DNA of 64,000 nucleotides from Octopus vulgaris (lineage: Eukaryota): contig OX597839.1 of the NCBI GenBank assembly GCA_951406725.2, positions 30,814,001 through 30,878,000 on the forward strand. Direction: 5' to 3'. How positions within the stretch are numbered: position 1 is the first letter of the stretch; each line of letters starts with the position of its first letter. Positions 12,201-40,503 of the stretch are shown in pieces. The notes beneath the pieces are model-generated. The model worked only from the letters and a program-made list of their open reading frames with translations. It had not been told where the DNA came from and did not search any database. The position numbers and the translations under genes were made by a program.

Positions 12201-13479
12201 TTTCATTTTATGCGACAGATTTATCTGGTTTCGTGTTTCGGCTTTTCCCACTCGAGATTTCCTCATGTTTCCGTGTCGTTGTCTCCATCGAACGATCGAC
12301 ATTCAGTTTTGTCTCAGCTGCAAACGAATGTAATATCTCTGTTGTTTTCTCTCTTGATTTTAACATTTTGAAATAGATGCGCTTTGTTGCCATCACTTTT
12401 ATCCGGAAAGATAAAAGCAAAGTTAACCTCGGAAAATATTGAATCCTGAACGTAAAAAACCCCAAACAAACAGAAACAAACACTACAAGAAGTGTTTTTA
12501 TCTGATATTCTAAAGATTCAGTGACTGAGTCTCTCATATACAGAAATATCTAAACACTAATGAAGCGCCATTGACTACAGCTGAGTTCAATGCCACACTC
12601 AATCTCTCTGTTAATTCTTTGAATAAAGAGGTGGCAATTGGTGAGAGGATGTTCGATATTGTGGAGCGAACAAAGAGAAAGGTTAAACTCTATCAATGTG
12701 TTGTTGCAAACGAAAACCTTAACATCATTCTGCATTCCGCATCTTCTCATAATGCTGTTGCCACAAAGTCCAAAATATTCCCTCGAAGTCTTTGAACCCA
12801 TGATTCTTCGTTTCAGGTGGTCACTTTTGGAGCAAACACTGTAATGACGGCGGCGTGGTGCTTGTGCATTTTGCACTAAGTTGCAAAAGATCACGAAAAT
12901 ATTGTTATAACTGGAAAAATCATCAACGCCGAATTTAAAGTTATTCTACTTGTGGTAGATTCCGTCGTTGATTTTAAGTGTTTTGTATTTTTCTGTTGAT
13001 AATGAGTTTGTCATTAAATATTAGTAAAGTTACCTTATTTAATAAACAAATGTTTAAAACATTCTATGTAGAGTGTTGTTACTGTTGTCAGACGAAAGTG
13101 CTTTCGCATCCAGTTTTATTTTTGCAGACTAATTTATAATTCATCGTAATGGCTCCTTGCTGTGAATGCGTGGACAACCAACGAGAAAGTGTTACACGTG
13201 TGTGTTCAATGTAAACAGATGAGATGTGAAGTTCACAACTTTACTGCGCACATCGAGATTTTGGTCTTACTTTGGCTGTCTGCAGTGCGTTCCGTACTTT
13301 ACTCAATGAAAAATCTTCTCATAATACACACACACACACACACACACATATGCTCACGTATCATATCTGCCGCCTGTCTGTATAGACAGACATACAAATA
13401 TGCTCAGGTACATACACACGCACGTAATGAGAACTTACATGAACACATGCATACATACAGATACAAACATATACAGACA

Positions 13480-14963: not shown

Positions 14964-15378
14964 TTTACATTCGACGGATATTTGTCCTCATCTTGTATGT
15001 TGTTAGCACAAAGTTTCGGCTGATATACCCTCCAGCCTTCATCAGGTGTCTTGGGGAAATGTCCAACCTGGGTTCTTATTCCTAAGGCATTTTTCGATAT
15101 TATTATTATTCAGGTCACTGCCTGGAATCGAACTCGGGCATATGGCATAGTGGTTAAGAGCGCGGGCTACTAACACCAAGATTCCGAGTTCGATTCCAGG
15201 CAGTGACATGAATAATAATAATATCGAAAAATACCTTAGGAATAAGAACCCAGATTGGAAATTTCCCCAAGACACCTGATGAAGGCTGGAGGGTATATCA
15301 GCCGAAACGTTGTGCTAACAACATACAAGATGAGGACAAATATCCGTCGAATGTAAAATAATTCCTCATCTCTTAAAC
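14964..15378. mobile_element. Short non-autonomous element: tRNA-like head plus hammerhead tail, preceded by an inverted copy (174-bp arms 14964-15137 / 15184-15357)
   Basis: Arms are near-perfect reverse complements. The loop holds the A-box TGGCATAGTGG (15143-53); B-box GTTCGATTCC at 15188-97. Confidence 0.85.
15271..15316 (+). ncRNA. Minimal type-I hammerhead ribozyme
   Basis: gacac-CTGATGA-a-ggctg(gagggtatat)cagcc-GAAA-cgtt-gtg: conserved core, 5-bp stem II, palindromic ACGU stem III as in dimeric PLE hammerheads, GUU triplet. The mirror copy at 15005-15050 (-) has a mutated stem III. Confidence 0.75.
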
Positions 15379-15774
15379 TGTGTTAAACTTATTTTAGTAA
15401 AATATTCTATTCACAACAAAATAACAAACAAATAACAATTCATTGGATACTTTCTATCCTTTAAGGTGGTTATTTTAACCTCTATTTAAATATGTGTGTG
15501 TGCGTCTTTGTATCTATGTTTATCCCCTACAAACGCTTGACAACCGGTATTCGTTTGTTTATGTCTATAAATTAGCGGTTCGGCAAAGGGGGGGGGATAG
15601 AATAAGTACCACGCTTTAAAAAGAAAATAAGTACTAGGGTCGATTCATTCGATCAAAAAATTCTTCAAGGCGGTGCCCCAGCATGGCCGCAGTCTAATGA
15701 CTGAAACTAGTAAAAGATTATGTGCCCCAGCATGGCCGCGGCTTTCGGGCTGAAACATTTTTAAGGATTTAAGG

Positions 15775-15826
<52 letters not shown>

Positions 15827-16699
15827 GTGTGTGTGTATATGGAAGTGTATATATATAAATATATATGTATGGGTGTGTGTATTTATTTATCGCACACGTA
15901 CACACACGCACGTTAATATATTTCTGCATATCCACATCCATCAAGCAATTTAATAAAACGTATCTAATTTATATTAATAAACTATATTGTATTTAATATC
16001 TCTATTCATAGACAATAAAATATTTCATTTATGCCTAATAAAAATTCAATCTATTTATACCGAATGCAATAGAAATCTCTCCTTTCACTATTCAACCGCC
16101 CACTCTCGACTCTTTATTAATTTTCTCGCCATCAAACTGCCATTTGTTTTTAGTTACCTTACACTATTCTAACCATGCCATTGTTGTCGTTGCTAATTCG
16201 CTATTTTCCTCATTGTTCTTCCTCCAACTCAATTCTTCACCGCTGCCCTACACACACACACACACACACTTTGATATTGTTCTTTAGTCCCATGCGTGTA
16301 CATATACATGTTTGCACGTGTAAACACACACACACACACACACGTACATTTCAGCATTCCTCGACCGTTCAATTCGGACACGTTTCTTTCTTTTTCACTC
16401 TCCTCTTCTATCCTTTCCGGAGAAGTGCTTATGCTCGAAACCTTAAACACTTCATCCATTTTTCCTAAGCGTCGACCTAAAACACTCCGTTTCTTGTTCT
16501 TTTACCTCATCTTTTTTTTGGGGGGGAGGGGGTAAACCATATCATCATTAAAATAATGGCCGGGTTGCAGCAACAAAGCCCACCCACCACACGGTCCACC
16601 ATCACTGCCTCCAGGTCCTAAATAAATTCCAGGCCAGTCTCTTACGATGAAGATGTCAATGTGTGTGTGTGATGATGTTTTCTTCTTCTTACATCACCA

Positions 16700-17220
16700 T
16701 GATGTGCGTTCCACTAGAGTAATTTTGGTGTTTCCAATCCAGGGTGGCCCACACACTGGCCAGAGAGCCGCAGTCGTCTTTACCTGATCTTCTCGTTAAC
16801 CTTTCGGCAGGTTTCCATAAAGGGATTCATTAGTCATATGTCGCTGCCGTTTCATATATTAAGGCCATTCGTAGCATCCTTGTGTAGCACCTATTCAGCC
16901 CGTTTTTTTAATTTCTTAATCAGCGTCCCCGTTTCACTCTGATGTGACAGTTGCAATGAACAACTTGACTTTGGTTTCCCTGGACAATTTGGAGTTCCAG
17001 ACCTTCTTTAGTTTGTGACAGGCTGTCTAATGCTTGTGCCTTCCTGGTCTTGATATCTACTTCCGAAATGTTCACCCAACCACCTAAGTACTTGAAGTCT
17101 TCAGTAACATTCAATTTGGAAACCGCTCAAAGCAAACAGTACAACATCACTTGATTGGTTGGAAGACATCTATTTCGTTCTCTTAACATTTGTGTGAAGT
17201 TCTATTTTAGCAGCTCATAT
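16700..17220 (-). mobile_element. Degenerate RTE-like LINE reverse transcriptase C-terminal fragment
   Basis: VTEDFKYLGGWVNISEVDIKTRKAQA (FKYLG motif) and downstream YTRMLRMALNI..HMTN. Confidence 0.7.
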
Positions 17221-17233
17221 TTCTACTATGGAT

Positions 17234-17270
<37 letters not shown>

Positions 17271-17417
17271 TAGATAGATATATATCGTTCGACGTAGCTC
17301 ACCATATACTATACACTTTTGAAAATCTAATGTGAAACTGGCAAAGTGTATTCCTATATTTGAAAACATAATTAAATTCTAATTAATTCTAATATATTCT
17401 CAGCACATTTTTCAACT

Positions 17418-17461
<44 letters not shown>

Positions 17462-17547
17462 AGTACATACATGTATGTGTATATATACATATACATATGT
17501 ATGTATGTATATATATATATATTTATTTATTTTTATTCTTTCGTCAG

Positions 17548-17886
17548 ATATAGATTTATCGGATGTCGACTCGGAACCGGGTTTCCACGTGAAACGGAAA
17601 CAACGACGAAGCCGGACCACCTTTACTGCTGACCAGCTGGAAGAACTGGAGAAAGCCTTCGAACGGACACACTACCCTGATATTTATACCCGCGAGGAAC
17701 TGGCCCAGAGAACCAAATTGACCGAGGCACGAGTCCAGGTTTGGTTCAGCAATCGCAGAGCACGATGGCGCAAGCAAGTAGGCAATAATCAACTAAGTAC
17801 CCTGAATGGCTTAATTCCACCCCAAACTGTACCTGGTTCTCATTACGTCCTACCAGATTCAAGTTATACGTTGTCAACAGCTCAAG
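17548..17886 (+). CDS. Pax3/7: Pax3/7-type homeobox gene, homeodomain-containing exon (internal, phase 1 to phase 1)
   Basis: Translates [78 protein letters not shown]... The homeodomain (17601-17780) has Ser50 (WFSNRR) and the Pax3/7-specific [15 protein letters not shown], and is preceded by the conserved 'SDVDSEP..KRK' linker. Acceptor ttctttcgtcag (AG 17546-47), donor AAG/gtaagt at 17887. Confidence 0.96.
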
Positions 17887-18514
17887 GTAAGTGAAGTATA
17901 TGCTTCGGTATGATGATAATAAAAACATAAATGTTGGTTGGTTGATGTCTTCAGTCATGCTTTACACCGTGTGGAGAGAGAGAGAGAGAGAGGTGTAGGA
18001 TGAGTGCTCATTCTAGGCTTGGTGGCAGACTCTGTGTAAAAAAACGCTACAAACGCATACACAAAGAGAAAGAGTAATAGAAATGAGAAATATGAAGCTG
18101 TTCGAATCTGCCGGAATGCATTAAAAATGAACGTCAGGTATTTGTTTTATCAATTTTATTTTAAAGTAATAAATATATATATTTCTTTTTTGAAAACACA
18201 TTTTTTATAAACACCAAAAACAGTTGATAGCATTTATGCCATGTTTTCTGATATTCTTCCGGGTGGCAAGACTGGATTTCCGAAGCGTCGTCGTGTGACG
18301 CATTACACTCAAGTCTCTGTTATTGCTGTTGTTTTACTTCTCAGAACGTTCGGTCTTGTTTGTTCTGGTAGATTCTGTGAGGGCGGACGGCAGGGGTCTG
18401 GCTGGGTCCCTTTTCGCATGTTAGAAGTTTTCATACACGTGACATTCAACACCCAAATACTAACCTCAAAATCTTTGTTGTCCCCAGCACAGCAGTTTTG
18501 GGGGTCTTGCTCTA

Positions 18515-19818
18515 CATACATACAAACACGCACATACATACATATTACACACGCACACACATACACACGCATATAGATACACACATACACGTATATACAC
18601 ACGCACGCACACATATACATACATACACACGCACCGACACATATACATACACACAAGCACATATATACATACACACGCACACACATTTATATATACATAC
18701 ACAAACACATACATAACATATACACGCATATACATACATACATATACACGCACACATACACATATACATGCATACACACGAACACATACATACATATATA
18801 CACACACACAAACACGCACACATACATACAAACAGATCCATACACACAGACGCGCATATTATCTACATATACATACACACACACACATATATATACATGC
18901 ACACATATACACACAGAGACACATATCCATACATGCAAACACAGACATACATGTACACATATAAAAAACATACATACAAACACACAGACACACATACATA
19001 CACACACATACATACACACGCACATACGTATACACAAACACATGCATATATACACACACATGCATATATATATGTACAACTACATACACATATGTACAGA
19101 CATATACACAATCACATATTATACACGCACATATATACGTACACACATACGTATACACACACATACGCATTCACACACATATACATATATACACACACAC
19201 ACACATATACACACATACATTCACACAATCGCATTCACACTCTCAGACATACATACATACACACACATCCATACATACACTCACATATACATCTATATAC
19301 ATACACCCACATATACACACATACATACACACACAAAAATACATACCAACAGATGCATCCATACACACACAGATACACACATACATACATACATACACAG
19401 ACACACAGACATGCATACATACATACATACAAATACAGATACACACATATACACACACATACAAATACAGACACATATACATACACACATGCATATATAT
19501 ACACACATTCATACATATGCATATACATCTATATATATACACAAACATATGCACACATACATACACACATATATAGATACATATATCCATACATACATAG
19601 ACACATATGCACACACAGACACATTTACACACACACATATACATAGATATATACACACCTACATATGCATACACATATGTACACAAATGCATACACACAT
19701 ATAAACAATCACATATACACACACATATGCATTCACACATATATATACACACATACATTCACACTCTCAGACATACATACACACACATATACGTACACAT
19801 ACATACATATACACACAC
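18515..19818 (+). repeat. ~1.3 kb degenerate (CA/TA)-rich microsatellite field
   Basis: Continuous acacatacatacac-type sequence; source of many spurious ORFs. Confidence 0.95.
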
Positions 19819-19819
19819 G

Positions 19820-19975
19820 GCATTTCGTCCATCTTTATGTTGTGAGTTCAAATTCCGCCGAGGTCAACTTTGCCTTTCATCCTTTCGGAGTCGATTAAAC
19901 AAGTACCAGTTACGCACTGGGGTCGATGTAATCGACTTAATCCCTTTGTCTGTCCTTGTTTGTCTCCTTGGGTAA
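19820..19975 (+). mobile_element. Family B SINE
   Basis: gagttcaaattccgccgaggtcaactttgcctttcatcctttcgg…gtaccagttacgcactggggtcgatg. Confidence 0.8.
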
Positions 19976-20103
19976 TAAACAAAAATGTGTGTATGTATGC
20001 ATGTCTATATCTCTATGTATGAATATATGTATCTATATACTTGTATGTATATATATGTGTATGTATGTATATGTACTTATGTACATATATGTACGTATGT
20101 ATA

Positions 20104-20136
<33 letters not shown>

Positions 20137-20254
20137 CTGTATATGTATGTATATTTCATTATGTAAATACATTGTGTGAGAGAATATTATACACTGAATT
20201 TTCGTGCTGTTTGTGTCAAAAATATTCATACTTTAAAGTCTTTCGACCTTTAAT

Positions 20255-20698
20255 ACGAGCCATTGTTTATTCTGTACTTTCATTAAATGTTAAGGGTTTA
20301 GCAAAAAAGTTTTTAAATAGTTAAGAAAGGCTTTCCTAGTAATCACAAATAATACCACCACATATTTAACAGATCATTAATTAAAATATCCTCGTCTACA
20401 ACACCAAACATAGGATCTATTATTGCCAGTTCTAATAGAAGAAAGATTAACAAGTTTTAGTTAATAACAGCAATAACAATCCTAATAATGAATTCAACAA
20501 TAGCAGTAATAAGACTGGAGATAATTAATGCTGAAGACACGGAGGAGCGAGGCTGATCGATGGCAACGGAATTCTAAGAAACCATAGATTTCACAATATA
20601 CAAATAGCACAAACTAATAGCAATAATAATAATAATAATTCACAAATATATTTGACTCCAAGATAAATAAGACTACAACGATAACATTAAGCGCCATA

Positions 20699-20769
<71 letters not shown>

Positions 20770-23430
20770 TAGATGAAAGAATCTTACTCTCACCCTGGTC
20801 TGTCTTGAACCCAGTACCAGATTATTCAGGATGTCCTATCACACTTTATCCATCTGCACCCTTACTCACCCCCCCCCCCATTAATTTAAGATAATTAAAT
20901 CCGCCACAGCATCAACTCAATAATAAAAATAGGTTTAAATATCTCATCTTTTCACTGCTTTACAAGGTGAGGTCTGGTGGCTTAGTGGGTAAATATCTCT
21001 ATAATCAAAAATATTTTAATTACTTTGTCAATTTATTTATAATTATTTCCTTATTTTGATATCTCTAAATGGTAAATAATAGACGCTAATGTCAATCTTT
21101 GTTGCATCTTTTATAATATTTCAAAGTTTTAGAGAATTTGTGTCTACATGTTGACAAATTATTAAGTTCTTTTGACTAAACAGTAGAATATAGAGGGACT
21201 CCTTTGTACAGAGACGGCAACTATTAGACTTATGTGTGTAAGGTGTAGCAGAATCTGTTATTGACCAATCTAATCTACAGGTAACTTGATTTTGGTTCAA
21301 TTTGTTTATACAGGTAGCTAACGAAGTAGTATTACTAGTGATGTAAGGCTCAAAGTAATGCAGGTGTGCTGGAAAGCTTTGCTTAAAATTAACAGAACTC
21401 CCTGTGTATACCATATTACTTAAATTATATAGATGTATACATATATATACACGTGTGTGTGTGTGTGTGTGTTCCAACTCCTGTTTGTCGACCAGCATTG
21501 GTGTGTTTGCATCTGCATAATGTAGTGGTTTGGAAAAAGAGACTGATGGAATAAGAACCAGGCTTTAAAAAGAAGTGTAGGTGCCCCAGCATGGCCACAG
21601 TCTGATGACAGATAAAGATAAAATATATAACTTATCATGATTTCAAAAAAAGGGATTGAAACCCTCATGCTAAATACTAAGTTATACCTTACCACTAAGC
21701 CACCCAAGCAACTCTTATTTCTAGCCTAAAAATAAAAGTATTTAAATCTATTTTTTTAATGATTGGACACAATTATAGATTTAAGTATCTCATCTGTGAC
21801 AGCAATTATTGGGGGGACCCGGTAGACTCGTGGGTAAAGGTGTGAGCAGTGCAAAGGGGGATGACAGCAACCTTGTCCTGGGGGGATCAAATCAGGGTGT
21901 AGGAGAGATTCTTTTATATTTTTTGTTTGTTTCAAGGATGCTAAAAAAAAAAAATATATAGTTGCAGACAGAGATTGAAACCTCTATCTCTACACAGGAT
22001 TAGTAATTAAATTACCAACCCTTTTACCCACTAAGCCACCAAACCTCACCTTGTGAAACAGTGAAAAAATGAGATATTTAAATCTATTTTTTTAATGATT
22101 GGACACAATTATAGATTTAAGTATCTCATCTTTGACAGCAATTATTGGGGGGACCCGGTAGACTCGTGGGTAAAGGTGTGAGCAGTGCGAAGGGGGATGT
22201 TGGCAACCTTGTCCTGGGGGGATCAAATCAGGGTGTAGGAGAGATTCTTTTATTTTTTTTTTTTGTTTCAAGGATGCTAAAAAAAATATAAAAGAATCTC
22301 TCCTACACCCTGATTTGATCCCCCCAGGACAAGGTTGCCAACATCGCACTACTCACCTATGTACACCTTTACCCACGAGTCTACCGGGTCCCCCCAATAA
22401 TTGCTGTCAAAGATGAGATACTTAAATCTATAATTGTGTCCAATCATTAAAAAAATAGATTTAAATATCTCATTTTTTCACTGTTTCACAAGGTGAGGTC
22501 TGGTGGCTTAGTGGGTAAAAGGGTTGGTAATTTAATTACTAATCCTGTGTAGAGATAGAGGTTTCAATCTCTGTCTGCAACTATATTTTTTTTTTTTTAG
22601 CATCCTTGAAACAAACAAAAAATATAAAAGAATCTCTCCTACACCCTGATTTGATCCCCCAGGACAAGGTTGCTGTCATCCCCCTTTGCACTGCTCACAC
22701 CTTTACCCACGAGTCTACCAGGTCCCCCAATAATTGCTGTCACAGATGAGATACTTAAATCTATAATTGTGTCCAATCATTAAAAAAATAGATTTAAATA
22801 CTTTTATTTTTAGGCTAGAAATAAGAGTTGCTTGGGTGGCTTAGTGGTAAGGTATAACTTAGTATTTAGCATGAGGGTTTCAATCCCTTTTTTGAAATCA
22901 TGATAAGTTATATATTTTATCTTTATCTGTCATCAGACTGTGGCCATGCTGGGGCACCTACACTTCTTTTTAAAGCCTGGTTCTTATTCCATCAGTCTCT
23001 TTTTCCAAACCACTACATTATGCAGATGCAAACACACCAATGCTGGTCGACAAACAGGAGTTGGAACACACACACACACGTGTATATATATATATATGTA
23101 TGTATATATACATATATATATAGTTTAAGTAATATGGTATACACAGGGAGTTCTGTTAATTTTAAGCAAAGCTTTCCAGCACACCTGCATTACTTTGAGC
23201 CTTACATCACTAGTAAGACTACTTCGTTAGCTACCTGTATAAACAAATTGAACCAAAATCAAGTTACCTGTAGATTAGATTGGTCAATAACAGATTCTGC
23301 TACACCTTACACACATAAGTCTAATAGTTGCCGTCTCTGTACAAAGGAGTCCCTCTATATTCTACTGTTTAGTCAAAAGAACTTAATAATTTGTCAACAT
23401 GTAGACACAAATTCTCTAAAACTTTGAAAT
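20255..23430 (+). mobile_element. Dead Penelope-like retroelement (RT-EN linker at ~20255-20460, GIY-YIG at ~23130-23427), disrupted by an inverted duplication
   Basis: SLNVKGLAKKFLN..KGFPSNHK..HIFNRSLIKISSSTTPNIGSIIASSNRRK matches the PLE linker (PFS..K..FL..HFP..H..KIFNR..IKISYS..PN). YTGSSVNFKQSF..TSLATCINKL..LDWSI..ATPY....CRLCTKESLYIL matches the PLE GIY-YIG C-terminus. Confidence 0.75.
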
Positions 23431-23559
23431 ATTATAAAAGATGCAACAAAGATTGACATTAGCGTCTATTATTTACCATTTAGAGATATCAAAATAAGGA
23501 AATAATTATAAATAAATCGATAAAGTAATTAAAATATTTTTGATTATAGAGATATTTAC
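20989..23559. repeat. ~2.57 kb inverted repeat (arms ~1.26 kb, A/T-rich spacer ~22253-22288)
   Basis: Mirror ORFs 21121-21498(-) and 22900-23427(+); ends gtaaatatctctataatc / gattatagagatatttac. Confidence 0.95.
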
Positions 23560-23825
23560 ACGACATATACTATACGTTAAACAATTGATGAATTGGTTTT
23601 CTTAGAATTTGAACCTGTACACATCTATCCTACAATAAATACACCTTTACAGTTGTAATTAAAGAAAGAAAAAAAATTTAAATGGTATCTTCCAGTTATA
23701 CAATAAAAAATATAACAGCAATATTTTGATCACCAAAATCTTTTTTGCCCATCTCAAACATGGAATGCAGGATAAGGTATGGCTTACACAAAATTCTCAG
23801 GGATTACCAACATGAACTTACCAAC

Positions 23826-23874
<49 letters not shown>

Positions 23875-24050
23875 ATAAATATTAGGGAATAAATCCAAAT
23901 TTACAGGGAAAAAAATCAGATTTAGGATTAAATCCAATTTTATAGTAAAATATAATAAAATATTATTAGAGACAAAACCACTATTTTGTAAAACAAACAA
24001 GGAAAGACTTAATCAATACATAAAATTTTAATAAATAGTCAAAAAAACCG

Positions 24051-24093
24051 CCACTACAATCGTTTCTTGTCTTGATCGACAATCTTCAGGTGG
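24051..24093 (-). ncRNA. Mirror copy of the same hammerhead ribozyme
   Basis: ccactacaatcgtttcttgtcttgatcgacaatcttcaggtgg is the exact reverse complement of 25096-25138. Confidence 0.72.
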
Positions 24094-24194
24094 ACTTCAA
24101 TCTTTTTGCTACAAAGAACTGACCATCAGACATAACAGCAACACTTGAGGGTTGACAGAAATGCTGTTTATCATTACCAGGACGGAAGCGTTCT

Positions 24195-24239
<45 letters not shown>

Positions 24240-24284
24240 CGAATCTATCTGTATATATATGACTGCGTATATATTTCGAGTCTC

Positions 24285-24323
<39 letters not shown>

Positions 24324-24871
24324 ATGGCGCTGCCCCAGCATGGCCACAGCTCGTGAGCTGAAACGATGTTAAATGGGAAGGTAGCCAAAGATCACTTCAC
24401 ACGTATCTTCATTATCATCATCATGGTGGAGACATCTCTAAAAGAATAATCTCCCGCTGTCTAGAATATTCGTGTCGCCCACAACACAGAGATAAAAAAT
24501 GAATATATAGTCAACCCAGCCAAAATATTAATACGATTATCATTAGTCCCCGAACTTAGGAGGCCTGCAGATTGCTTTTGCGGTTAGTTATACATCTGTA
24601 TGTATAACTAACCGCAAAAGCAATCTGCAGGCCTCCTAAGTTCGGGGACTAATGATAATCGTATTAATATTTTGGCTGGGTTGACTATATATTCATTTTT
24701 TATCTCTGTGTTGTGGGCGACACGAATATTCTAGACAGCGGGAGATTATTCTTTTAGAGATGTCTCCACCATGATGATGATAATGAAGATACGTGTGAAG
24801 TGATCTTTGGCTACCTTCCCATTTAACATCGTTTCAGCTCACGAGCTGTGGCCATGCTGGGGCAGCGCCAT

Positions 24872-24916
<45 letters not shown>

Positions 24917-24961
24917 GAGACTCGAAATATATACGCAGTCATATATATACAGATAGATTCG

Positions 24962-24994
<33 letters not shown>

Positions 24995-25095
24995 AGAACG
25001 CTTCCGTCCTGGTAATGATAAACAGCATTTCTGTCAACCCTCAAGTGTTGCTGTTATGTCTGATGGTCAGTTCTTTGTAGCAAAAAGATTGAAGT

Positions 25096-25138
25096 CCACC
25101 TGAAGATTGTCGATCAAGACAAGAAACGATTGTAGTGG
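25096..25138 (+). ncRNA. Minimal type-I hammerhead ribozyme
   Basis: ccac-CTGAAGA-ttgtc(gatcaa)gacaa-GAAA-cgattg-TA-gtgg: stem I ccac/gtgg, stem II 5 bp, near-palindromic stem III ACGAUUGU, GUA triplet. Confidence 0.75.
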
Positions 25139-27855
25139 CGGTTTTTTTGACTATTTATTAAAATTTTATGTATTGATTAAGTCTTTCCTTGTTTGTTTTA
25201 CAAAATAGTGTTTTTGTCTCTAATAATATTTTATATATATATATATATATATACACAAACTTTAAAATTTTCTTAGCAAAGTCTACCTACCTGAATCAAA
25301 ACCAGTAAATTTTAATTTATTTTTCAAAAATACTTTCTTATATATTTTTCTGATTTTTAAAAGAACATTCCAGATATTATACACCCTTTACCCTCTCCAT
25401 TTCTGACGAGCGGAAGTATAGTCTATCAATGTCTTTCAACAAAGGATTCCATTAGAATGACAAAACTTTCACGAAACCATCATAACATGTATTAATTACC
25501 AAACTTTTAAACAATCATCTTTCATATATTTACAGCAATTTTTTAATATAAAATACTATTTTAAACACACATCTTTGTGAGCAATTTTTTTTAATGAAAT
25601 TTCATGCTAATATTTCAAGATACAGTATATATCTATGTGTATATATGTGTGTGTGTGTGTGTGCATGCGTATTTGTACGTGTGTATGTATGTGTGTATAT
25701 GTATGTGTGTATGTATGTATTTGTGTGTATGTATGTGTGTGTGCGTGTATGTGTGTGCATGTGTGTGTATGTATATGTGCGTGTGTGTATATGTAGGTAT
25801 GTTTGTGTATGTGAGTGAGTGTATGTGAGTATGTGTGTGTGTGTGTGTGCATGTATGAATGTGTGCATGTATGCATGTGTACGGGTATGCATGTGCGTGT
25901 GTGTCTATGTATATGTGTATGTATGTATGTGTGTTGTCATAGATATTGTTTGGCCCCAGGGAACCTTTATTGACCAGCTACAGAATCAAAACTGTGACCA
26001 ACACGTCTCTGTGGTGTAGTCTAAGACTATAGCAACTCTGTCACACTTTGTCCCATTTTAGTAAGAAGAGAGAGAGAGAGATGTGACAGTTGTTTTGAGA
26101 CTACTGAATGACCACATAAAGACCCCACCCTCCACCACCGTTTTGATCGATATATCTCAGTAACTGAGAGATGTGGGTTCAAATTCCCCTGATGGCCCCA
26201 GAGATACACAGAACTGAGAAAGTTGCAACACAGGTCCTCATTATTTAAGACATTAGAGGCTGATTTGATTGTTATGTCTAGCAGTGTGAATGACCACAAA
26301 AACAAAATCGTAGTTTTTTCATCTGGGAAGGTTCTGGGAGTGGGGGCTATGCTTTTTTCCATCTGTGATAGGCGCAGGCATGGCTGCGTGGTAAGACGTT
26401 TGCTTCCTAACCACAAGGTTCTGGGTTCAGTCCCACTATCGTGTGTGTGTGTGTGCACGCCTCTTTGCTGTGACTTCACCTGTCAGTTGTAAACGAGTGT
26501 CACCCTCCTGCCTGTGGTGTCCTTCATGACCATCCCTGTGGAAGAGTGGACATCAAAACGATGATGATGATAATTTGTCTATTTGCACAGACACAAAGTT
26601 TTCATATTCAACAAACAGCAGCACCAGTCGTCCACATCGAAGCTAAAATCAATGGCTGTAAACAGAGTTTAACGATGGGTGCGTGTGTGTGTGCGTGCGT
26701 GTGTGTGTGATGTCAATCACCGATAAATATTGAACACAAGTAGAGCAAGAGACAAGAGAAAAAATGTAGGGCGTGTTATATAACTCGACAGGTGTTTCTT
26801 AAGAACAGTTTTTTGCTTTCCTTTTCTTTCTCAGACATGCTCTCCATAAATGTGTGCCTGTGCGTGTATATGTAGATATATATCTACATACATATGTATA
26901 TGTGTGTATGTGATACACACACACTCACATGCACACACGTATATAGTTAAATGGAGAAAAGAAAATGGAGAGTAGGAAATTAATAATTATTTATTATTAA
27001 CAAATTGGCCATTTCAATTAATGCTCAGTAATTTAATTAGAAATTTGTACATTACTTTTGGGTACCCACCCTCGTATTTATAGATACATACAGACAGTCT
27101 GGTGTAAAAGCTGAGCTTTCACGTGATTCCTGGTCATCTCGCTTTGGCCAGACACAAGCTACTTGACAAGGGGGTTCAGAGAGAGCTCCCCCTGTTGCAC
27201 AAGTGTTTATCTCTCTCTCCCATTACACAAGTGTGACTTTAGGACAACCTCCTTAGTCATTCCATCTACTCAAAGTCCCGTGGTGATGGAAAAGCAGCGA
27301 GATATGCAGACCTAACCGTTTGGACAGGGAGCATCTGTCACCTTTGCTTCAACTTGGGTTTGGGGTGGGGGAAGGTTCAGTCCCGTTGCAGATCTTCATG
27401 GTTTGAAGCATGACCCTGAGAGGCCATAAATGGGAAACCAGAAACACCACTGACAACAAGGAAGCACAATCAGACGTGTGTGTGTATATATGGAAAAAAA
27501 AGTCAAGGTAGAAAATGCTAAAATAATTGTATAAAAACCATTTCAGTATCGATTTCAGTCATTGAGACTTTTTCAATTGTTGTTAGTATGGAAAAGAATT
27601 AAAAGAAAAGTTTTATTAAAAGAATATTTGCATAGTATTCAAACACAAGGGTCATTTACCTTGTTTCTGCCAGTCTCTGTCTCTCTTGTGGGTTCAAGGT
27701 CGTTGTGAATTCTTGGTAGGGAAGAAGAAGAAGAATGCGGGAGTGCCATGATAGTCGTATGTCAAATGGTCATAGAAAGTAACTGGAAGAGATACCTGGA
27801 TGACCATTTCATTCTTTGGCATGAAGATATAGAGAAACTGAAAGAATTCCAAGTA

Positions 27856-28790
27856 CTCATAAACGGACTTGATGTAATTCATGATGGAATGTAGCCATCA
27901 ACAACTTCCCTTCCTCGACATCCTCATCAAGAAACGTAACAGACATATACTATAAGCCCACAAACTCCAAGCAATATCTACTGTTCAACTCCTGCCACCC
28001 CAGACACACCAGAATGAATATCCCCTTCAACCTAGCAAAAAGGATATGTGTTTCTGATGCAAACCCCAGAGACACACGACTACATGAGCTAAAGGATACA
28101 CTCATCACCAGGAACTACCCACCTTCACTAATTGACATATGCTTTCAACGTGCCCTTCTACTCAACATCCAGGAACTCAAACATCCCAAATTAAAGGATT
28201 TACAATCAAAAGCCCTACCACACATCTCCACAGCAACCCTCTTAACAATGGAACCTTCAACACCATCCTTCAATACATTCCCCTGCTAAAAAAGGACCAC
28301 AGAATGAACTTAATCAAAAAAAGCCCAAGAGAACCCTATTCTCGAATATGCTCAACAACAACACAGAAGCCGTCAGTAAAAAAATTGCAGAAGACTCAAC
28401 TGTGGAATATGAGTCAATTTAATTGAGGGATCAGAGTTCTCCTTCAAACAGGGACAACGTTTCACAGTGAAAAGCAACTTCACATGTGCTTCGGAGAACC
28501 TGATATATGCACTAACCTGCTCTGGGTGTCAAGATCAATACATAGGCCAAACAAAAAATGGTCTACGTAAAAGAATGGCTCTGCACAGATCCTAGATCAA
28601 AATCCCCCAAAACAGAAAAATGGCATTCAGCCAACACATTTGACATTTGTGCCAATAACAAAAATCTAAGCTTCCGAATTTTTCCCCTCTACCAATTCAG
28701 GGATGATACAACCTGTAACCAACGAATTAGTATAGAGTCTCTTTATTACAAAATACAGACCCCTTTTGAATGCATCTACAACGACATATT
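27856..28790 (+). mobile_element. Penelope-like element fragment (RT thumb, Cys-rich linker, GIY-YIG), frameshifted
   Basis: QLPFLDILIKK..TDIYYKPTNSKQYLLFNSCHPRHTRMNIPFNLAKRIC..TRNYP; NCRRLNCG; FTCASENLIYALTCSGCQDQYIGQTKNGLRKRM. The Cys linker suggests the Neptune-like clade. Confidence 0.88.
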
Positions 28791-28899
28791 GATCTGTTTA
28801 ATTTGATTATCCCCAACATTTGCTTTTCTCTCTCTCTATACACACACACACACACACATACACCTGTATACATATATTTTTCTTATTCTTTCCTCTTTC

Positions 28900-29205
28900 C
28901 CTCGTTTCAGTCATTCGACTGCGGCCATGCTGGAGCACTGCCTTGTAAAGTTTTTTTTTTAGTTGAACAAATCGACCCCAAAACTTACTTTTTAAAGCCT
29001 ACTATTATTCTATCGGTCTCTTTTGCCGAACCGCTACGTTACAGGGATGTAACCACACCAACATCAGTTGTGAAGCAGTGATAGGGGGAAGAAACACACA
29101 CAAAACACACATAGATGTACACGACGGGCTTCTTTCTGTTTCCGTCTACCAAATACACTCGGTCCGGGGCTAGAGTAGAAGACCCTTATCCAAGGGGCCA
29201 CGCAG
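28900..29205 (-). mobile_element. Family A SINE
   Basis: gtttcagtcattcgactgcggccatgctggagcac…gacgggcttctttctgtttccgtc. Confidence 0.8.
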
Positions 29206-29962
29206 CAGGACCACATATTCTGTGGAGACAGACGAGACAGAAAGCTAAATGTATCACAGTTCCTCTGTAAATCTCTTTTCCTCCGTCAAATCCTCCTGAT
29301 CAGACACTAAACTCTCCCTTCGTTGCCAGTCTGTCTCACACCCCACCTTTCCCCCCTCCCTCTAATCTTTATACCTCGCCGCCACCACAACCACCCCTGT
29401 CTGTGCAGTAACAGTGCGCAGCCCCTCATACTGGAGCCAGTGAGGGCTCAGAACCTCCGCTCGACCTATTGTCACAGGCAACACGCGCCCTTTCATCTTC
29501 GCCGACCTGTCGTACGCGATTTCGTCATCTCGCTTTGATGAGCATCCTGCAAAAAGTAAATAAAAAAACAGAAACAATGAAAATCAAATAAAAAATAAAT
29601 AAGAAATTTTTTAAAACAACAACAACCTATTTATGGCTTATATCCCCTAATGACCCTCACCCCCGATCCCCCTTTTCGCCATCAGACGCGTTCATTCATT
29701 TATTTTTACTATCTACTCTTTACACCTTTGCAACACACTACGCTCACTTCTGCTTCTCAAACACACACACACACACACGTTGCTGCTTATTAATGCAATT
29801 ACCTATCTGTGTGTATATATATGTATGTATGTATGCGTATGTTTAAATCAATAGATGTATATGTGTGTATATATATATACACACACACACACACGTATAT
29901 ATGTAAATACATATGTATTTATATATGTACACGCACACACGTGTGTGTGCGTGTGTGTGTGA

Positions 29963-30002
<40 letters not shown>

Positions 30003-30781
30003 CATAGACGTAAAGATTCATTACACATTGTGTGTGCGCGTATGTATTTGTGTTTGCCTGCCATTCCGTGTGTGTGTTCGTCTGAATGTCTTTGTGTGAG
30101 AGAGAGAGAGAGAGAGACAGTGTGGTGGTGGTGGTGGTGGTGGTACCAGCTATAAAACAGTTACACACAATCGATATGAAGAGGTACCACTCCCTCTTTC
30201 TAGCTGAGTGGTCGATGTTAAGAAAACGCTACATTGTCAATAATAATAATAATAAAAAGGTGACGCTACCGAGATGAATCGGGTGAGGAGGGGTGGGCGA
30301 GGGAAGCGCGGCGGTGGCGATGGTGGCTTTACAAATTGGTTAAAAGAAGAGAAACAACATTAAGAATGGTGGCGATGGTGGTGGTGGTGAAGATGAGGAG
30401 TGAGGGGCGGTTACGGAGAGACGGGGGGGGGGGGGGATTCAAGGAGAAGAAATGTTTAAAAGAAGCTAATATAATGTCGATTAGACAACAATGTGTTTAA
30501 CGAAAACATTTTAGCATAAAGAACAGGGCGCGAACACACACACACACACACACACACACGAGTATGTAAGTGTGCGATTATTTGTCGAATCTGTATATAT
30601 ATATACATACATGTAGTTTTATATATTTACGTATATATATAAATACACACACACACACACGTATGAAGATATATGTGAATGTACACACACACACACACAC
30701 GTAGATTTGATAAGTGCCAACGCACGAAACTATCGGTTCTTGAGTCACTAACTTCCGTCCATTATTGTCATTATTATAATA

Positions 30782-30970
30782 AAGGCGGCAGAAACGTTAG
30801 CACGCCGGGCGAAATGCGGAGCCGTATTTCGTCTGCCGTCACGTTATGGGTTCAAATTCCGCCGAGGTCGACTTTCGTGGTTGATAAGTACCAGTTGCGA
30901 ACTGGGGTCGATATAATCGACTAGCCCCCTCTCCAAAAATTTCGGGCCTTGGGCCTAGAATAGAAAAGAA
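30782..30970 (+). mobile_element. Family B SINE
   Basis: ggcagaaacgttagcacgccgggcgaaatgc…ggttcaaattccgccgaggtcgac. Confidence 0.8.
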
Positions 30971-31152
30971 CGTTATATGTGTGTGCATGAAAGAGAGATT
31001 TCTACATGAATCCCCCGGTAGCTGTTTCGAACTCGGCGTTGGGGTTTGCAAAAAGCATTTGAACGCTTAACCATTGTGAATGTCGGGTTCCAGACGAGCA
31101 GAAGGCGGAAACGTGGATGGGAACTAATAATATGAAATTGTCCTGATTTGTA

Positions 31153-31570
31153 TTCTTTTACTTGTTTCAGTCATTTGACTGTGGTCATGCTGGAGCACCA
31201 CCTTTAGTCGAAGGAATCGATCCCAGGACTTATTCTTCGTAAGCCTAGTATTTTTTCTATCGGTCTCCTTTGCCGAACTCTAGGTTACGGCAGGGACATA
31301 AGAGATCACAGGCATGGGGAGGAATATAGATGTTGCACGGATGGTAGTCGAACCAAGAAAGAAAGGTCGGGCTTGCGTTCTTGCCCCATTTTGGGGTATT
31401 CCTTTATATATATATATACGACGGGCTTCTTACGGTTTCCGTCTGCCAAATCCACTCACGGGGTTTCGGTCGGCCCGAGGCTATACTATACTAGAAGACA
31501 CTTGCCCAAGGTACCACACAGTGAGACCGAACCTTGAACCATGTGGTTGGGAAGCAAGCTTCTTACCACA
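31153..31570 (-). mobile_element. Family A SINE
   Basis: ttttacttgtttcagtcatttgactgtggtcatgctggagcac…ccatgtggttgggaagcaagcttcttaccacac. Confidence 0.8.
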
Positions 31571-33249
31571 CCTATACTTGCTCGTTCTATATATTTCCTT
31601 ACGAGTGAAACTTGTAAATTCACGAATAACTAAACCACTAAACCGGAAGCAGGCTGGACGATGATGACCTACGTGGAGCTCTTAACATAACAGTAGCAAT
31701 TACACATCTGTTTGTACGCTCAACACACACACACACACCATTGATGTCGCGAACGGGTCACCTTCTTCCACCAACCCTAAAACCATTTCGATGACGTTCC
31801 ATTTATTTCTTCAAAGTCCTGTTCATTATTGAGGGCTGAGAGACACAGATACCAGACGTAAAAATTTAGGGATCTAAGGAAATTATATCGATTACTTTGA
31901 TCCCTCCGCTTCGTGTATGGCCGCTACTTAAATTTATCGATCTGGGGGGGAAAAAAAACACACACCAGTAAAAATTGACCTCGTTTGGATTTGAACCGAA
32001 AACATACAAAGCCGGAAATAAAGGCGCAAGGTATTTTGCCCGATGCTCTAACGATTCGGCCAACCACCCCCATCCCTAACAACCCCAGTCGTAGTAATAG
32101 TAGAAAGATGAGAAGTAGCAGTAGTAGCAGCGGCAGCAGGAGTCGTGGCGTCAGTGATGCGATACAATTGAATTAGAAAAAGCAATGGAGTCGCATAAAA
32201 AGAGGCCGTGAAGGAAGGGCGTGGCTGAATTGAAAGATGGGAGGAGAAACAGAGTCACTTAAACTGGATTTGTTCAGCTTTTTACATGAGTGGCGGCGGC
32301 GGAGGCAACGTAATCGTTGTTCGCTTTGTTGTTGTAACGTTGTGGCTATAATTACTGTAAAGGACTAAGTTATAATGGCGGCGGCGGCGTGGTGGTGGTG
32401 GTGGTTTGGTGAGGGAGTTACGTGGTTGTGGATTTGGTTGTTCAGCCCCAGGTCATCCGTTACCACCTCGACTACATACCACTCTAGTATGACCTTTGCT
32501 TTAATCAGAGTACTGCGGTACTTGTCGTGTTCGGGTTTCATTTCCTACATTCCGACACTCACACAAACCCTGTGCATTTATAAAACCTAATCCAAGTTAT
32601 ATATATATGCCAGAAGAGTGGTGACAGTGAGTTCGAAGTCTCGTCCTGCTAGTCTTCGGTGTAGTTGAGTAGGGTTTCACCGTTTATCAACGTATAAAGG
32701 TTACCCAAATATTCCGTCCCGCATGGCCCGGGATTCAACCCCCCACAACAGTGGGCCAAGCGTTTCAGAAAAACCGTAGAGATGGCCGGAATGTGTCCAC
32801 AAATCGTCTCTTTGGACTTGTAATCGCGTTCTAAATCGTTTTAGATCCTCATGTGAAACTTGGTGTAGCAGCTAAGCCATCTTGAAACTCCTTTCTCTCT
32901 CTCTCCCTCCCCACCTGACACGAAGAAGGCCAGCCTCGTTGCCAGTAGAGCTTGTATCCTTCGGATCCTGACTGGGCTGAAACTCTCACAAATCATCAAA
33001 AATGGGACGTTTCACTTGTTCACATCTCTTCAGATCTACTGGGCTCAGCGGACGTCCGTTTCTTCACGTCGTACATACGTGCATACATACACACGTGCAT
33101 ATATACGAGCATACATACACATATATACATACATTCGTACATACATACACACATAAACACGTGTGTGTGTGTGTGTGTGTACAGTGTTGAAGCAAAATTT
33201 GACAGTTTGCATAAAAGGAAAACAAAATGTCCCATACAAAAGTAAAATC

Positions 33250-33830
33250 ATGTTAAGAAAGCAAAGAATCTCAACTGGACGAGGTTGGCAGGAGGAGATA
33301 ACAGTTTGGTCAACCCGACCGCCCACGGCTTCCAGAACCTGGCGCATGCATTTGCCACTGTATCCCTTAGGAAGATCTTCGATCACTTCCCCGATCTTGG
33401 CCACAGGTTCAGCCTTGGTGTTGCAGGTAGGGCCGATGGAGTCTATGTCAACCGCATCCCACACATGGGGATTACAACCGGAGCCGGGGAAGCAGCCGCA
33501 GAAATTCTCTGAAAACCATTTCAAACTCTTTCCGCGTGTGTATGGCCAAGAGTCAAATCCTACTGTCACAGAACATGGCCTGGCAGCAGCTTCACACAGC
33601 CGTTTGAATATAACCTAAAGGGGTTGTTGGATGAATTCCGGCCATACCGACACAATCGGAACGCCTGCTGTGTCCCTTCTTGCTGGCCACGGCCGGCTTC
33701 CAAGTCTCTGTTGCAGCTGTCCATGTCACGTCTTGAGTTCGCAGAGTGCAATGAGCAGCAGTCATGAATGTCGGTAGTTTGACACTCGCCACCAATCATC
33801 GTGATACAAGTAACTCCCTCACAATATTCA
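33250..33830 (-). mobile_element. Internally deleted Tc1/mariner-superfamily transposase relic
   Basis: KSLKWFSENF..PGSGCNP..VWDAV..CNTKAE..KIGEVIEDLP..CMR..LEAV, a decayed form of W..ENF..SPDCNP..VW..CNTK. Confidence 0.7.
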
Positions 33831-34140
33831 GACGGGTTCCAATCCTTTCAGGTCAGCTAAGTTCTTCTCAGTTACAACTTTAATCTTTATGCTCTCCAAC
33901 GCCGTTGACTTTACCAATACACTCAGCTATTCTTGAAAGGAGACAAAAGAAAATCGACTAATTTAGCCCGGACACACTGTGTGTGTGCGTGTGTGTATCC
34001 CCTCTGTGGCCAATAAAGAAATTATATATATATGAGAGGTATTGGTATTCAGAAGACCCAAAATGGCAGCTAAGACTATATAAATGATATCGGTTCCATA
34101 ATAATACGAGCGAGGAGTCTCATGCAGGTCTTGAGGCAAG

Positions 34141-34350
34141 AAAGCCAAGGCTGTGTGGAATTTTCGGGACACTTATAAAGAGAAAGTTAGTCTTACAGCT
34201 GTTTCTGGGATATTAAGGATATCCCAGGATCAGAGACGAAATCCTCTCACATCGTCTCTGATGAAGGGATATCCCTAATATACCAGAAACAACTGTAAGA
34301 CTAACTTTCTCTTTATAAGTGTCCCGAATATTCCACACAGCCTTCGCTTT
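34141..34350. repeat. ~100-bp-arm inverted repeat (loop 34240-34251) carrying hammerhead copies
   Basis: aaggctgtgtggaa…cagagacga / tcgtctctg…ttccacacagcctt. Confidence 0.9.
34254..34301 (+). ncRNA. Minimal type-I hammerhead ribozyme (partly decayed)
   Basis: gtct-CTGATGA-agggatat…atatacca-GAAA-caactg-TA-agac. The mirror copy shows stem II tgggatat/atatccca and palindromic stem III ACAGCUGU. Confidence 0.65.
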
Positions 34351-35754
34351 GTTGTCTCATTTTATTTAACACTCACACATACATATATTAATGTATGCAT
34401 TACACACGCGCACACGCACTTTAATCGGCAGAAATTTACAAAAGTGACTCAGGGGCCGAGAGTTCCTTTGCTACTTCTTTCGGCCAACTGAAAAGAGAGA
34501 AAGAAATAGTACACACACCAGATGCACATATACAAACATGTATGTATGTATATATATATATATATATATATGAATAATATTCGCGCGCATATATGCGTGT
34601 GTGTATGCTTTTTTGTATGTAATTATGTGAGGGTGGGGTGCTAGGGGGAGGCGAGAGAGAGATCGCAGTCAACAAACGGGAAGCCATTGCGACTAAAGCA
34701 GCAACACCGTCTTCAGTTGTTGTCAGCAAATCAGGCGTGACGGGTCGGCGCCTCTCTCGCACGTTCAACGCTTTTAATAACACACACACAAATGCGCGTG
34801 CGCGCTCGTCATTGTCGCAGTGGTACGAGCAATGGCGGCATCAGCTGTTCTACAGAAGAATTTACGAGAAAACAGACGGATATTGTTTAACCGAAGTAAA
34901 ACCCTGAGTGATCAGATCTATAATCAAATAAGATTCCAGCCGTGACACCCACTTCTGTTATTCTATAGCCTCGGGCCGGCCAAAGCCTTGTGCGTGGATT
35001 TCGCAGACGGAAACTGAAAGAAGCCCGTCGCGTGTGTGTGCGAGGAGTGGGGTCGATTCATTCGACAAAAAATTCTTCGGGGCAGTGCCCCAGCATGGCC
35101 GCACTCTAATGACTGAATCAGATAAAAGACAAATATACCCGTACATTCAAGCATATATAACCGTATATCGTGGTGGTGGCCAGTGTAGGAATGGATACGG
35201 TGAAGTCTGATAGAAGACAACATTTGCTGTTTCTCTGCATTTTGTAGCCAGTTGTGTGCCTCGTTGCACCGCGTTTGGTGCCAGGGGTGTCACAACTATT
35301 TCAGTGGGTAGAAATGCTTATAATTTGTCTGGGTGGAGAGCGGGGTGGCTGTTGTAGCAATTGATCCCGGGTGTTTGAAGAAGTTTTTCATTATAGTAAC
35401 AAGGACCACGAATGGATTTGAATTCTGTTGGGGACAACCACCTCAACCCGTCCCACACCCGGTTCTGTTTCAGTTGAGCTTATTTCTGTCTCGTTGTGTC
35501 CAGTTGGGAACGGGGGGGGGGACGGTCTCTGCACGATCTGCTGTGATATGGAGGCCGTTGTTTTGTGGAGTTCGTGGTTTCCTGCGTAGGGATTTGAACC
35601 CAGGTAGGAGGGCTTGGAGAGTCCAGAACAGATCCAACATTTATACAACCACCGTTGCGGTTTCTGTTGGCCAAACTGTGTCGGTTCCGCATCGTTTGAG
35701 TCTCTTGGTAAATGGCGGATGCTCCGCATGGGGGGGGGGATTGTAGTATTTCGG

Positions 35755-40011: not shown

Positions 40012-40050
<39 letters not shown>

Positions 40051-40503
40051 ATTGTGTGTGTGTGTGTGTGTATGGTGTGTGTGTGTATGGTGTGTGTGTG
40101 TATGGTGTGTGTGTGTATGGTGTGTGTGTGGTGTGCGTGTATGGTGTGTGTGGTGTGTGTGGCGTGCGTGTATGGTGTGCGTGTATGGTGTGTGTGTGTT
40201 GTGCGTGTATGGTGTGTATGTGCGTGTATGGTGTGTGTGTGGTGTGCGTGTATGGTGTGTGTGGTGTGCGTGTATGGTGTGTGTGTGTGTGGTGTGCGTG
40301 TATGGTGTGCGTGTATGTGTGTGTGGTGTGCGTGTATGGTGTGTGTGTGTGTATGGTGTGTGTGCGTGTATGGTGTGTGCGTGTATGGTGTGTGTGTGTG
40401 TGGTGTGCGTGTATGGTGTGTGTGCGTGTATGGTGTGTGTGTGGTGTGCGTGTATGGTGTATGTGTGTGTGGTTTGCGTGTATGGTGTGTGGCGTGCGTG
40501 TAT

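Follow-up and report, generated by a model that had tools for sequence, protein, structure and literature searches.

The Pax3/7 locus and its inverted repeats

The window analyzed here is a stretch of 64,000 nucleotides (C26:30814001-30878000) of the 2.8-Gb Octopus vulgaris genome, and it contains exons of a Pax3/7 gene together with three hammerhead-bearing inverted repeats, which we term IR1, IR2, and IR3. The homeobox exon of Pax3/7 lies at 17547-17888 on the plus strand and matches, with 100% identity, a protein that carries the label Octopus vulgaris Pax-7-like. Further exons 3' of the homeobox exon, on the same strand, lie at 45087-45314, 46413-46592, and 47115-47246; no paired-box exon was found within the window. 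IR1 (14964-15357) is positioned upstream of the homeobox exon, and IR2 (23955-25234) and IR3 (approximately 34132-34359) lie inside the 27-kb intron between the exons at 17547-17888 and 45087-45314, in agreement with the Pax3/7 placement given in a preliminary description of this DNA. All three repeats recognized in that description exist, with the bounds of IR3 widened here, and they are indeed unrelated in sequence, the sole stretch common to them being one 17-nt match at chance level.

The three repeats are the pseudo-long terminal repeat (pLTR), or 3', ends of three different Penelope-like elements (PLEs), whose families we call F1, F2, and F3. The window contains 10 matches to the hammerhead core pattern CUGANGA..GAAA, compared with a mean of 1.73 in shuffled sequence, and no shuffle out of 100 had as many. 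A stem-aware scan of the window found 3 hammerheads (shuffle mean 0.07, shuffle maximum 1), and five other matches to the core pattern were dropped as hammerheads as they have no stems. The family-type motifs carry stems I and II and a palindromic stem III, with a reversed control of 0. An Rfam scan gave no hammerhead among the 150 of 160 matches listed, only microsatellite-driven miRNA matches, and four of the five arms folded as monomers are no more stable than shuffles.

According to the preliminary description, every right arm carries a hammerhead and every left arm its mirror, with stem III palindromic or nearly so. This holds for IR2, the only repeat in which a type I hammerhead is intact in both arms (stem III ACGAUUGU), and the right arm of IR1 does have the palindrome ACGU, but the stems of IR1 are mutated and the left arm of IR3 has lost its core. 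The palindrome attributed to IR3, ACAGCUGU, sits on that left arm, where the core reads CUGAUCC, and the hammerhead core is on the right arm, where stem III reads ACAACUGU; the two arms had therefore been merged. The motifs of IR1 and IR3 are decaying. The arms of IR2 are about 99% complementary outside microsatellites, those of IR1 are 97% alike and those of IR3 about 90%, and long hairpins are predicted for IR1 (-317 kcal/mol) and IR3 (-163 kcal/mol).

IR2 joins spliced host exons to a PLE terminus

IR2 is made up of two spliced host exons from another chromosome joined to F2 at GT-AG sites. On the plus strand of its right side, captured exon A (24596-24831, 236 nt) is followed by captured exon B (24832-25087, 256 nt) and then by the F2 terminal exon, or pLTR end (25088-25234, 147 nt), which belongs to a young PLE of the Hydra clade. 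Exon A is identical at 236 of 236 positions to its donor at C20:31638605-31638840 (minus strand), and its 3' end falls at a GT donor. Exon B comes from C20:31597728-31597994, 40.6 kb from exon A on the same strand, where an AG acceptor precedes it and a GTAAGT donor follows it, and it has 0 substitutions relative to this donor outside length differences in (TA)n. Homology to the F2 family in the right arm is limited to 25088-25234, and the join of host to F2, which is at the base that follows a T-rich AG in full elements, precedes the ribozyme core by 12 nt. The intact type I hammerhead of this arm lies at 25096-25138, with a predicted cut after 25134. The left arm (23955-24595, minus strand) mirrors the chimera, including an intact hammerhead at 24051-24093, and is separated from its partner by a fold-back loop of 4 nt (24596-24599). 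An F2 tail of about 85 nt is present on this side only (23871-23954, minus strand) and runs into (TA)n. Spliced host RNA accounts for about three-quarters of each arm.

Exon B is itself composite: besides runs of (TA)n and a fragment of a repeat, it contains, at 24993-25082, a copy of an exon of PAM/PAL (NHL repeat), the functional gene for which likely sits on C12. C20 holds a partial duplicate of the C12 PAL exon and intron (93% over 471 nt; L097/L114), which has been exonised via an upstream repeat-derived acceptor. Among public RNA contigs from four runs, none bridges the A-B or the B-F2 junction and none spans an arm, which is uninformative either way; contigs of about 2.8 kb continue into the normal PAL message.

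The F2 family and its spliced copies

The F2 terminus ends long elements with an open reading frame (ORF) for a reverse transcriptase (RT) followed C-terminally by a GIY-YIG endonuclease (EN). This parent ORF has DKT, a CxCX5C linker, and CxxC and CxH around E/N, lacks CCHH, reads IWK at the RWK motif, and is associated with (TA)n targets. DKT, CxCX5C, CxxC/CxH, and a (TA)n target are features of the Hydra clade (Craig et al. 2021, PMC8557442). Homologues of the F2 RT show 34-39% identity across the greater part of the RT query, and assignment of the parent to Neptune or Naiad was ruled out on motifs. Mapping of 11 F2 loci gave an order of ORF, untranslated region (UTR), repeated units, and terminal exon, all in sense, at L105, L106, and L226, and a rearranged arrangement at L108. 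An ORF antisense to the hammerhead, considered from L107/L108, is ruled out by this sense order.

Several F2 loci are of interest in their own right. L107/L108 (C1:166.322-166.338 Mb) is an F2 fold-back of 14.6 kb. It has tandem units of 1.74 kb, its ORF contains an asparagine (Asn)-rich stretch like that of Adineta Penelopes, and a piece of the ORF 5' end is present internally in inverted orientation. An older F2 subfamily at L131 (about 700-1200, minus strand) has the same tail and different stems (stem III ACGAUCGU), and its AG acceptor precedes the core by 14 nt. At L039/L040 (C28 22.59-22.61 Mb), a segment of a C2H2 zinc-finger gene is duplicated, and each copy contains an identical F2 fold-back.

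The last exon of F2 starts at AG|ATTGAAG, the base at which upstream sequence ends whether it comes from the element's own donor, from its intron, or from a host donor. Its own donor, GTAAGT, is found about 1.8 kb upstream of the terminal exon. In a sample of 100 F2 sites that follows genome order, the intron of the element is retained by 41, a join to its own donor is seen in 51, and 8 are other; by eye, the latter are six own-exon variants or fold-back joints, one truncated copy, and one host chimera. Spliced mini-elements derived from the RNA of the PLE itself make up about half of the F2 copies sampled. Among 60 distinct contexts that do not end in the acceptor, 55 match at least 8 bases of the element's own exon, none reaches more than 23 nt upstream of the junction, and six match exactly 23. 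The 23-nt position is the A of an initiator-like motif, TCACTT, which suggests that F2 has a 23-nt first exon. A block by the exon-junction complex was considered for the 23-nt limit and is disfavoured because several junctions are traversed in host chimeras; a start at a fixed site is preferred.

Recurrent capture of host exons

The IR2 chimera is not the only one of its kind. A pattern search for exon-like ends before the F2 acceptor base gave 10 matches in 7 insertions, comprising five host chimeras, one own-acceptor variant, and one truncated insertion. In addition to IR2 itself, a palindrome on C26 with its donor on C20, the chimeras are a 1.65-kb palindrome on C22 holding exons 1-2 of a kinesin-3 gene from C20, an insertion on C1 with an inverted spliced 5' part that derives from an ARM-repeat-like gene on C2, a palindrome on C14 derived from a CENP-E-like kinesin, and an insertion on C29 with five exons whose donors span 0.9 Mb of C28. 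In the four chimeras with located donors, donor junctions are GT-AG in 11 of 11 checked (2+2+2+5), and in every one of the four the host part stops at a GT donor and F2 begins at its own acceptor base. The five chimeras among 352 F2 cores are a minimum, since exons that end differently escape the pattern. We estimate the rate of host capture at about 2% of roughly 260 F2 insertions, a number extrapolated from 75 insertions per 100 sites. Kinesins make up two of the five captured genes (L038, kinesin-3; L241, CENP-E-like), which may be a matter of germline expression or of chance.

The F1 and F3 families

The right arm of IR1 (15139-15357, plus strand) is a full F1 unit, the pLTR of a PLE probably of Penelope/Poseidon type, followed by a shortened one-sided tail (15358-15378, plus strand). 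The left arm (14964-15137, minus strand) is a 5'-truncated inverted copy, covering unit positions 46-219, in which stem III is broken by mutation and the tail is absent. The minimal type I hammerhead of the right arm (15271-15316, plus strand) has the palindromic stem III mentioned above and a predicted cut after 15311, and its stem I is weakened by a substitution at 15315, where the family majority base is found in 39 of 46 cases. The unit opens with a tRNA-like head (15143-15197, plus strand) containing matches to the RNA polymerase III (Pol III) consensus for an A box (15143-15153) and a B box (15188-15197). Across 30 F1 loci, which are the best-scoring copies and hence biased to full length, the A box is present in 18 and the B box in 24.

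Sequence of the parent element is found directly upstream of F1 in 4 of these 30 loci and is missing from the other 26. PLE coding sequence, namely the EN C-terminus, lies upstream of F1 at three of the four (L002, L005, and L020), and the EN stop codon of the parent falls just ahead of the head with its A and B boxes. The RT thumb of the parent is linked via P0131, which together with the L020/L002 fragments, all of them degraded C-terminal pieces, would be compatible with the Penelope/Poseidon clade. Given that 26 of 30 loci lack parent sequence upstream and that the EN stop abuts the head, F1 behaves like a short interspersed element (SINE) generated from its parent's own pLTR. The reading of F1 as a stand-alone SINE was dropped after EN sequence appeared directly upstream of it.

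IR3 is simpler. Its right arm (34245-34359, plus strand) is the 5'-truncated 3' end of a long PLE, with a hammerhead at 34254-34301 (plus strand) that carries two stem substitutions, one in stem II at 34282 and one in stem III at 34292. The left arm (34132-34239, minus strand) is a truncated F3 end whose hammerhead core is destroyed, and it bears the one-sided tail (34021-34131, minus strand), which enters (TA)n. F3 copies are variably 5'-truncated, and their common upstream sequence extends up to about 1.45 kb, reaching an EN C-terminus of F2-like type in L070 and L068; the parent of F3 is likely a Hydra-type PLE. At 34225-34236, the mutated core of the left arm gives a stem II of perfect complementarity, which is what a local template-switch mutation would be expected to produce.

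Copy number, geometry, and tails

Far from being single-copy, the motifs are abundant and linked to PLE ends. Exact 24-nt cores occur genome-wide 5,595 times for F1, 352 times for F2, and 201 times for F3, and the reversed cores have 0 matches each. Among the first 100 listed cores of each family, F1 has 13 head-to-head pairs at distances of up to 1 kb (a count by eye), F2 has 25 at up to 20 kb, and F3 has 4 at up to 1.5 kb. Tail-to-tail pairs are 0 in all three families, and tandem pairs number 1 for F1, 1 for F3, and 0 for F2. The layout of non-LTR retrozymes, in which head-to-tail tandem repeats each have a hammerhead, is thus not that of F1, F2, or F3. One arm, and not the other, carries a family-specific tail in 16 of 18 F1 pairs and 25 of 26 F2 pairs, as is the case in all three repeats of the window, the F3 tail being known from the window copy.

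An inverted, 5'-truncated copy with a one-sided tail has been described for PLEs in general (Craig et al. 2021, PMC8557442), and opposite-strand hammerhead pairs 100-700 bp apart were reported in 2014 (Cervera and de la Pena, PMC4209133). The head-to-head architecture of the window repeats is therefore an already known, published pattern of PLE insertion. All three families have the hallmark of EN-bearing (EN+) PLEs, an ORF with RT and C-terminal GIY-YIG upstream of the hammerhead end, seen for F2 through L105 and L107/L108 and for F3 by the EN C-terminus only. The proposal that these pLTR hammerheads were moved by PLE RT/GIY-YIG proteins agrees with this, each family being tied to an endonuclease-coding parent and carrying a one-sided tail. 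More hammerhead-like motifs, with palindromic stem III ACGUACGU, ACAUGCAUGU, and ACAUGU, were seen at C20 31.50-31.67 Mb (L121-L137), some of them clustered and on both strands; these are probably additional PLE families.

Origin of the chimeras

We consider it probable that the window repeats are three PLE 3' ends arranged head-to-head and that the exons of IR2 were trapped by the F2 acceptor, the hybrid RNA then likely being reverse-transcribed. An F2 copy lying in cis in a host intron, and absent from the assembly, may have supplied the acceptor for host splicing, a step towards which we lean with less assurance. The RT/GIY-YIG protein would then bind the terminal exon and tail and nick (TA)n, and may make two copies of one RNA molecule, either by snap-back or by starting at two sites, to leave two arms and one tail. 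In each of the three palindromic chimeras both arms contain the same single-locus RNA, and for this reason they likely come from one template. For an anole PLE studied in vitro, two RT start sites that define the tail, cutting and extension of both strands, and uncleaved RNA as the substrate have been reported. A tail on one arm would fit two RT start sites, with snap-back of one cDNA as an alternative, and the 4-nt loop of IR2 is compatible with either. It is possible that promoters in the pLTR make short RNAs that become the commonest copies, with an initiator-like start and a 23-nt first exon in the case of F2 and the tRNA-like Pol III head in the case of F1. Ribozyme cleavage may be dispensable in this scheme, and the hairpins in the Pax3/7 introns would likely be neutral by-products.

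Several points weigh against this account. No matching F2 copy with an acceptor was found in the 100 kb downstream of exon B, in the whole intron 2 (80 kb) of the kinesin gene, or in the 29 gap-free kb after the ARM exon, and no exact F2 core lies around the ARM exon for 4 Mb among the matches listed. The first of these regions is interrupted by a 100-N gap 474 nt past the donor, and the kinesin intron has one 100-N gap and one older fragment without an acceptor. An older relative with both acceptor and hammerhead lies 0.8 kb upstream of exon B; it is 80% alike and on the wrong side. The four chimeras searched are each at one locus only, and the donor locus of the CENP-E-like chimera was not located. 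As for the parents, no intact ORF was seen for F1, F2, or F3, the RT-EN junction of L108 is frameshifted, and the RT and EN of L108 both lack a Pfam name, so that the clade of F2 is assigned from motifs and BLAST rather than from a tree. A tRNA origin of the F1 head is not confirmed, with 0 ARAGORN calls in the 30 loci and no Rfam tRNA match at E<=10.

The missing cis copies would be explained if free F2 RNA with an unpaired acceptor were joined in trans to the donors of host pre-mRNAs with long introns, as no cis source would ever have existed. This fits the absence of a cis copy from all three donor loci examined, the single-locus status of all four searched chimeras, the length of the donor introns (12-358 kb), and the 0 substitutions between the IR2 cargo and its donor, which imply a recent event. 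However, young insertions that trap exons would presumably be scarce and deleterious, and a single haploid assembly would often lack them; two of the donor loci contain assembly gaps, the check covered three of the five donors, and large fold-backs are described as hard to assemble (Craig et al. 2021, PMC8557442). We regard trans-splicing as less likely than trapping in cis, and we think it unlikely that F2 RNA trans-splices 5' exons of unlinked pre-mRNAs and retrotransposes them as hairpin palindromes, which would make it a source-free generator of gene-specific double-stranded RNA (dsRNA) loci and retrocopies. The simplest reading is that the source alleles were lost or are unassembled, as in SVA exon trapping.

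Other explanations address the repeats as a whole. The preliminary description saw in them three independent, non-autonomous, retrozyme-like families in which the antisense arm, transcribed first, masks the ribozyme and shields the Pax3/7 pre-mRNA. The repeats do lie in Pax3/7 introns and are predicted to fold as long hairpins, and short, non-coding copies are numerous in F1 and among spliced F2. However, all three families are tied to ORF-bearing PLEs, IR3 is the truncated end of a long element, and most of each IR2 arm is host RNA. The geometry is symmetric and found genome-wide, with tandem arrays rare, and an antisense arm that is transcribed first is a by-product of it because head-to-head repeats give this order on either strand. 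The motifs of IR1 and IR3 are decaying, and minimal PLE hammerheads are reported to be inactive as monomers or to need protein; protection is not supported, and we consider the reading as a whole improbable. That host mRNA was joined to a PLE end without splicing, through RT template switching or recombination at the DNA level, is very improbable and largely refuted by the exact GT donor and F2 acceptor base in all four chimeras with located donors, even though a chimera at L178 with jumps and an inverted 5' part implies that the F2 RT does switch templates. The near-identity of the IR2 arms, with no public contig spanning an arm, could also raise the suspicion of fold-back artefacts of assembly or sequencing, which we find hardly credible: the arms differ in substitutions, repeat lengths, and 5' ends, the tail is on one side only, the arms of IR1 and IR3 are less alike (97% and about 90%), and a DNA fold-back cannot create spliced junctions.

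Other features of the window

A fourth head-to-head inverted repeat, which the preliminary description did not list, lies at 20989-23559 (2.6 kb, 96.5%). Each of its arms has a Hydra-like GIY-YIG C-terminus, nested 223-nt units are found at its centre, and no hammerhead was found in it even with a loosened core search. A degraded PLE relic at 27885-28760 (plus strand) has RT-thumb-like and GIY-YIG (Pfam E=0.0036) pieces and is unrelated to IR1, IR2, or IR3. Three PLE protein relics had been counted in the window; two are distinct, and the third is the duplicate within the 20989-23559 repeat. Elsewhere in the Pax3/7 intron, 35400-44800 is occupied by a degenerate, CA/TG-rich minisatellite of about 9 kb with stop-free frames of up to 2,997 codons. 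A 131-codon open frame with Cys/His and without a Pfam match lies at 12553-12945 (minus strand), and a small palindrome at 9635-9744 is built from pieces of another abundant dispersed repeat.

Relation to known elements

The window repeats have much in common with EN+ PLEs (Penelope/Poseidon, Neptune, Nematis, and Hydra) as described by Craig et al. (2021, PMC8557442), including 5' truncation, an inverted copy, a one-sided tail, a pLTR hammerhead, and microsatellite targets. In Penelope of D. virilis and in Chlamys-3 there is an intron in the 5'-UTR, as here, and a promoter in the pLTR (PMC8557442), as we propose here, and in D. virilis the 3' boundary of the intron maps at helix I of the hammerhead (PMC4209133). 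The same account describes PLEs as tending to retain introns in transposed copies (PMC8557442), from which F2 differs with 51 of 100 sampled copies spliced. Hydra elements are given as shorter than 3 kb with tails of 30-40 nt (PMC8557442), whereas F2 is far longer, with its tandem units and Asn-rich stretch, and has a tail of about 85 nt. The minimal PLE hammerheads of PMC4209133 have the same short stem I and palindromic stem III and occur either solo or in opposite-strand pairs at the spacing given above; compared with them, F2 is without the extra base plus G10.1-C11.1 pair and F3 has an extra A before GAAA. The available text of PMC4209133 makes no mention of host exons spliced to an acceptor next to a hammerhead.

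Movement of host sequence by PLEs is not without precedent. In Adineta vaga, pLTR sequences acting in cis are enough to move host sequence in trans, as here, and inverted pLTRs and Asn-rich ORF segments are also found (Arkhipova et al. 2013, PMC3846280). The nonribosomal peptide synthetase (NRPS) cargo of that system keeps all of its introns and lies between pLTRs (PMC3846280); the F2 cargo, in contrast, is spliced, joined at the acceptor of the element, and duplicated as a fold-back. A closer parallel in form is exon trapping, or 5' transduction, by primate SVA, in which an upstream host exon is likewise spliced to an acceptor in the element and retrotransposed (PMC9148063). SVA depends on L1 and uses cryptic acceptors (PMC9148063), whereas F2 has a PLE's own functional acceptor beside a ribozyme and yields fold-back products, with no source element found. 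For F1, the nearest likeness is to the schistosome elements Sm-alpha and Sj-alpha, which are short, high-copy, and hammerhead-bearing, and in the case of Sm-alpha tRNA-related (PMC2770079, PMC7229834). Animal non-LTR retrozymes have been proposed to derive from PLE pLTRs (PMC2770079, PMC7229834, bioRxiv 10.64898/2026.07.22.740005). F1 differs from retrozymes and Sm-alpha in being dispersed and inverted rather than tandem, and in having its tRNA-like head behind the EN stop, inside a pLTR. Other literature consulted includes PMC11167929, PMC6431247, and PMC10886601. In a literature search that had subscription papers and Repbase outside its scope, no report was found of splice-mediated capture of host exons by a PLE or of a majority of spliced copies, and none of octopus PLE hammerheads or tRNA-headed PLE ends, although supplementary files S1/S2 of Craig et al. 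2021 may list octopus Hydra families.

Implications

Published PLE cargo is reported to keep its introns, and it is possibly new that a PLE makes processed, spliced retrocopies of host exons by means of its own acceptor. If transcribed, the fold-back retrocopies would form long dsRNA matching kinesin-3, a CENP-E-like kinesin, and a PAL exon, and such host-matching dsRNA is a possible route to gene-specific silencing or to substrates for editing. The single-copy chimeras also act as natural barcodes, since a single RNA species underlies both arms and the tail is on one arm only, and in this way they bear on how PLEs produce inverted copies. Together, F1 and spliced F2 represent two ways for a pLTR to spawn short, non-autonomous hammerhead elements.

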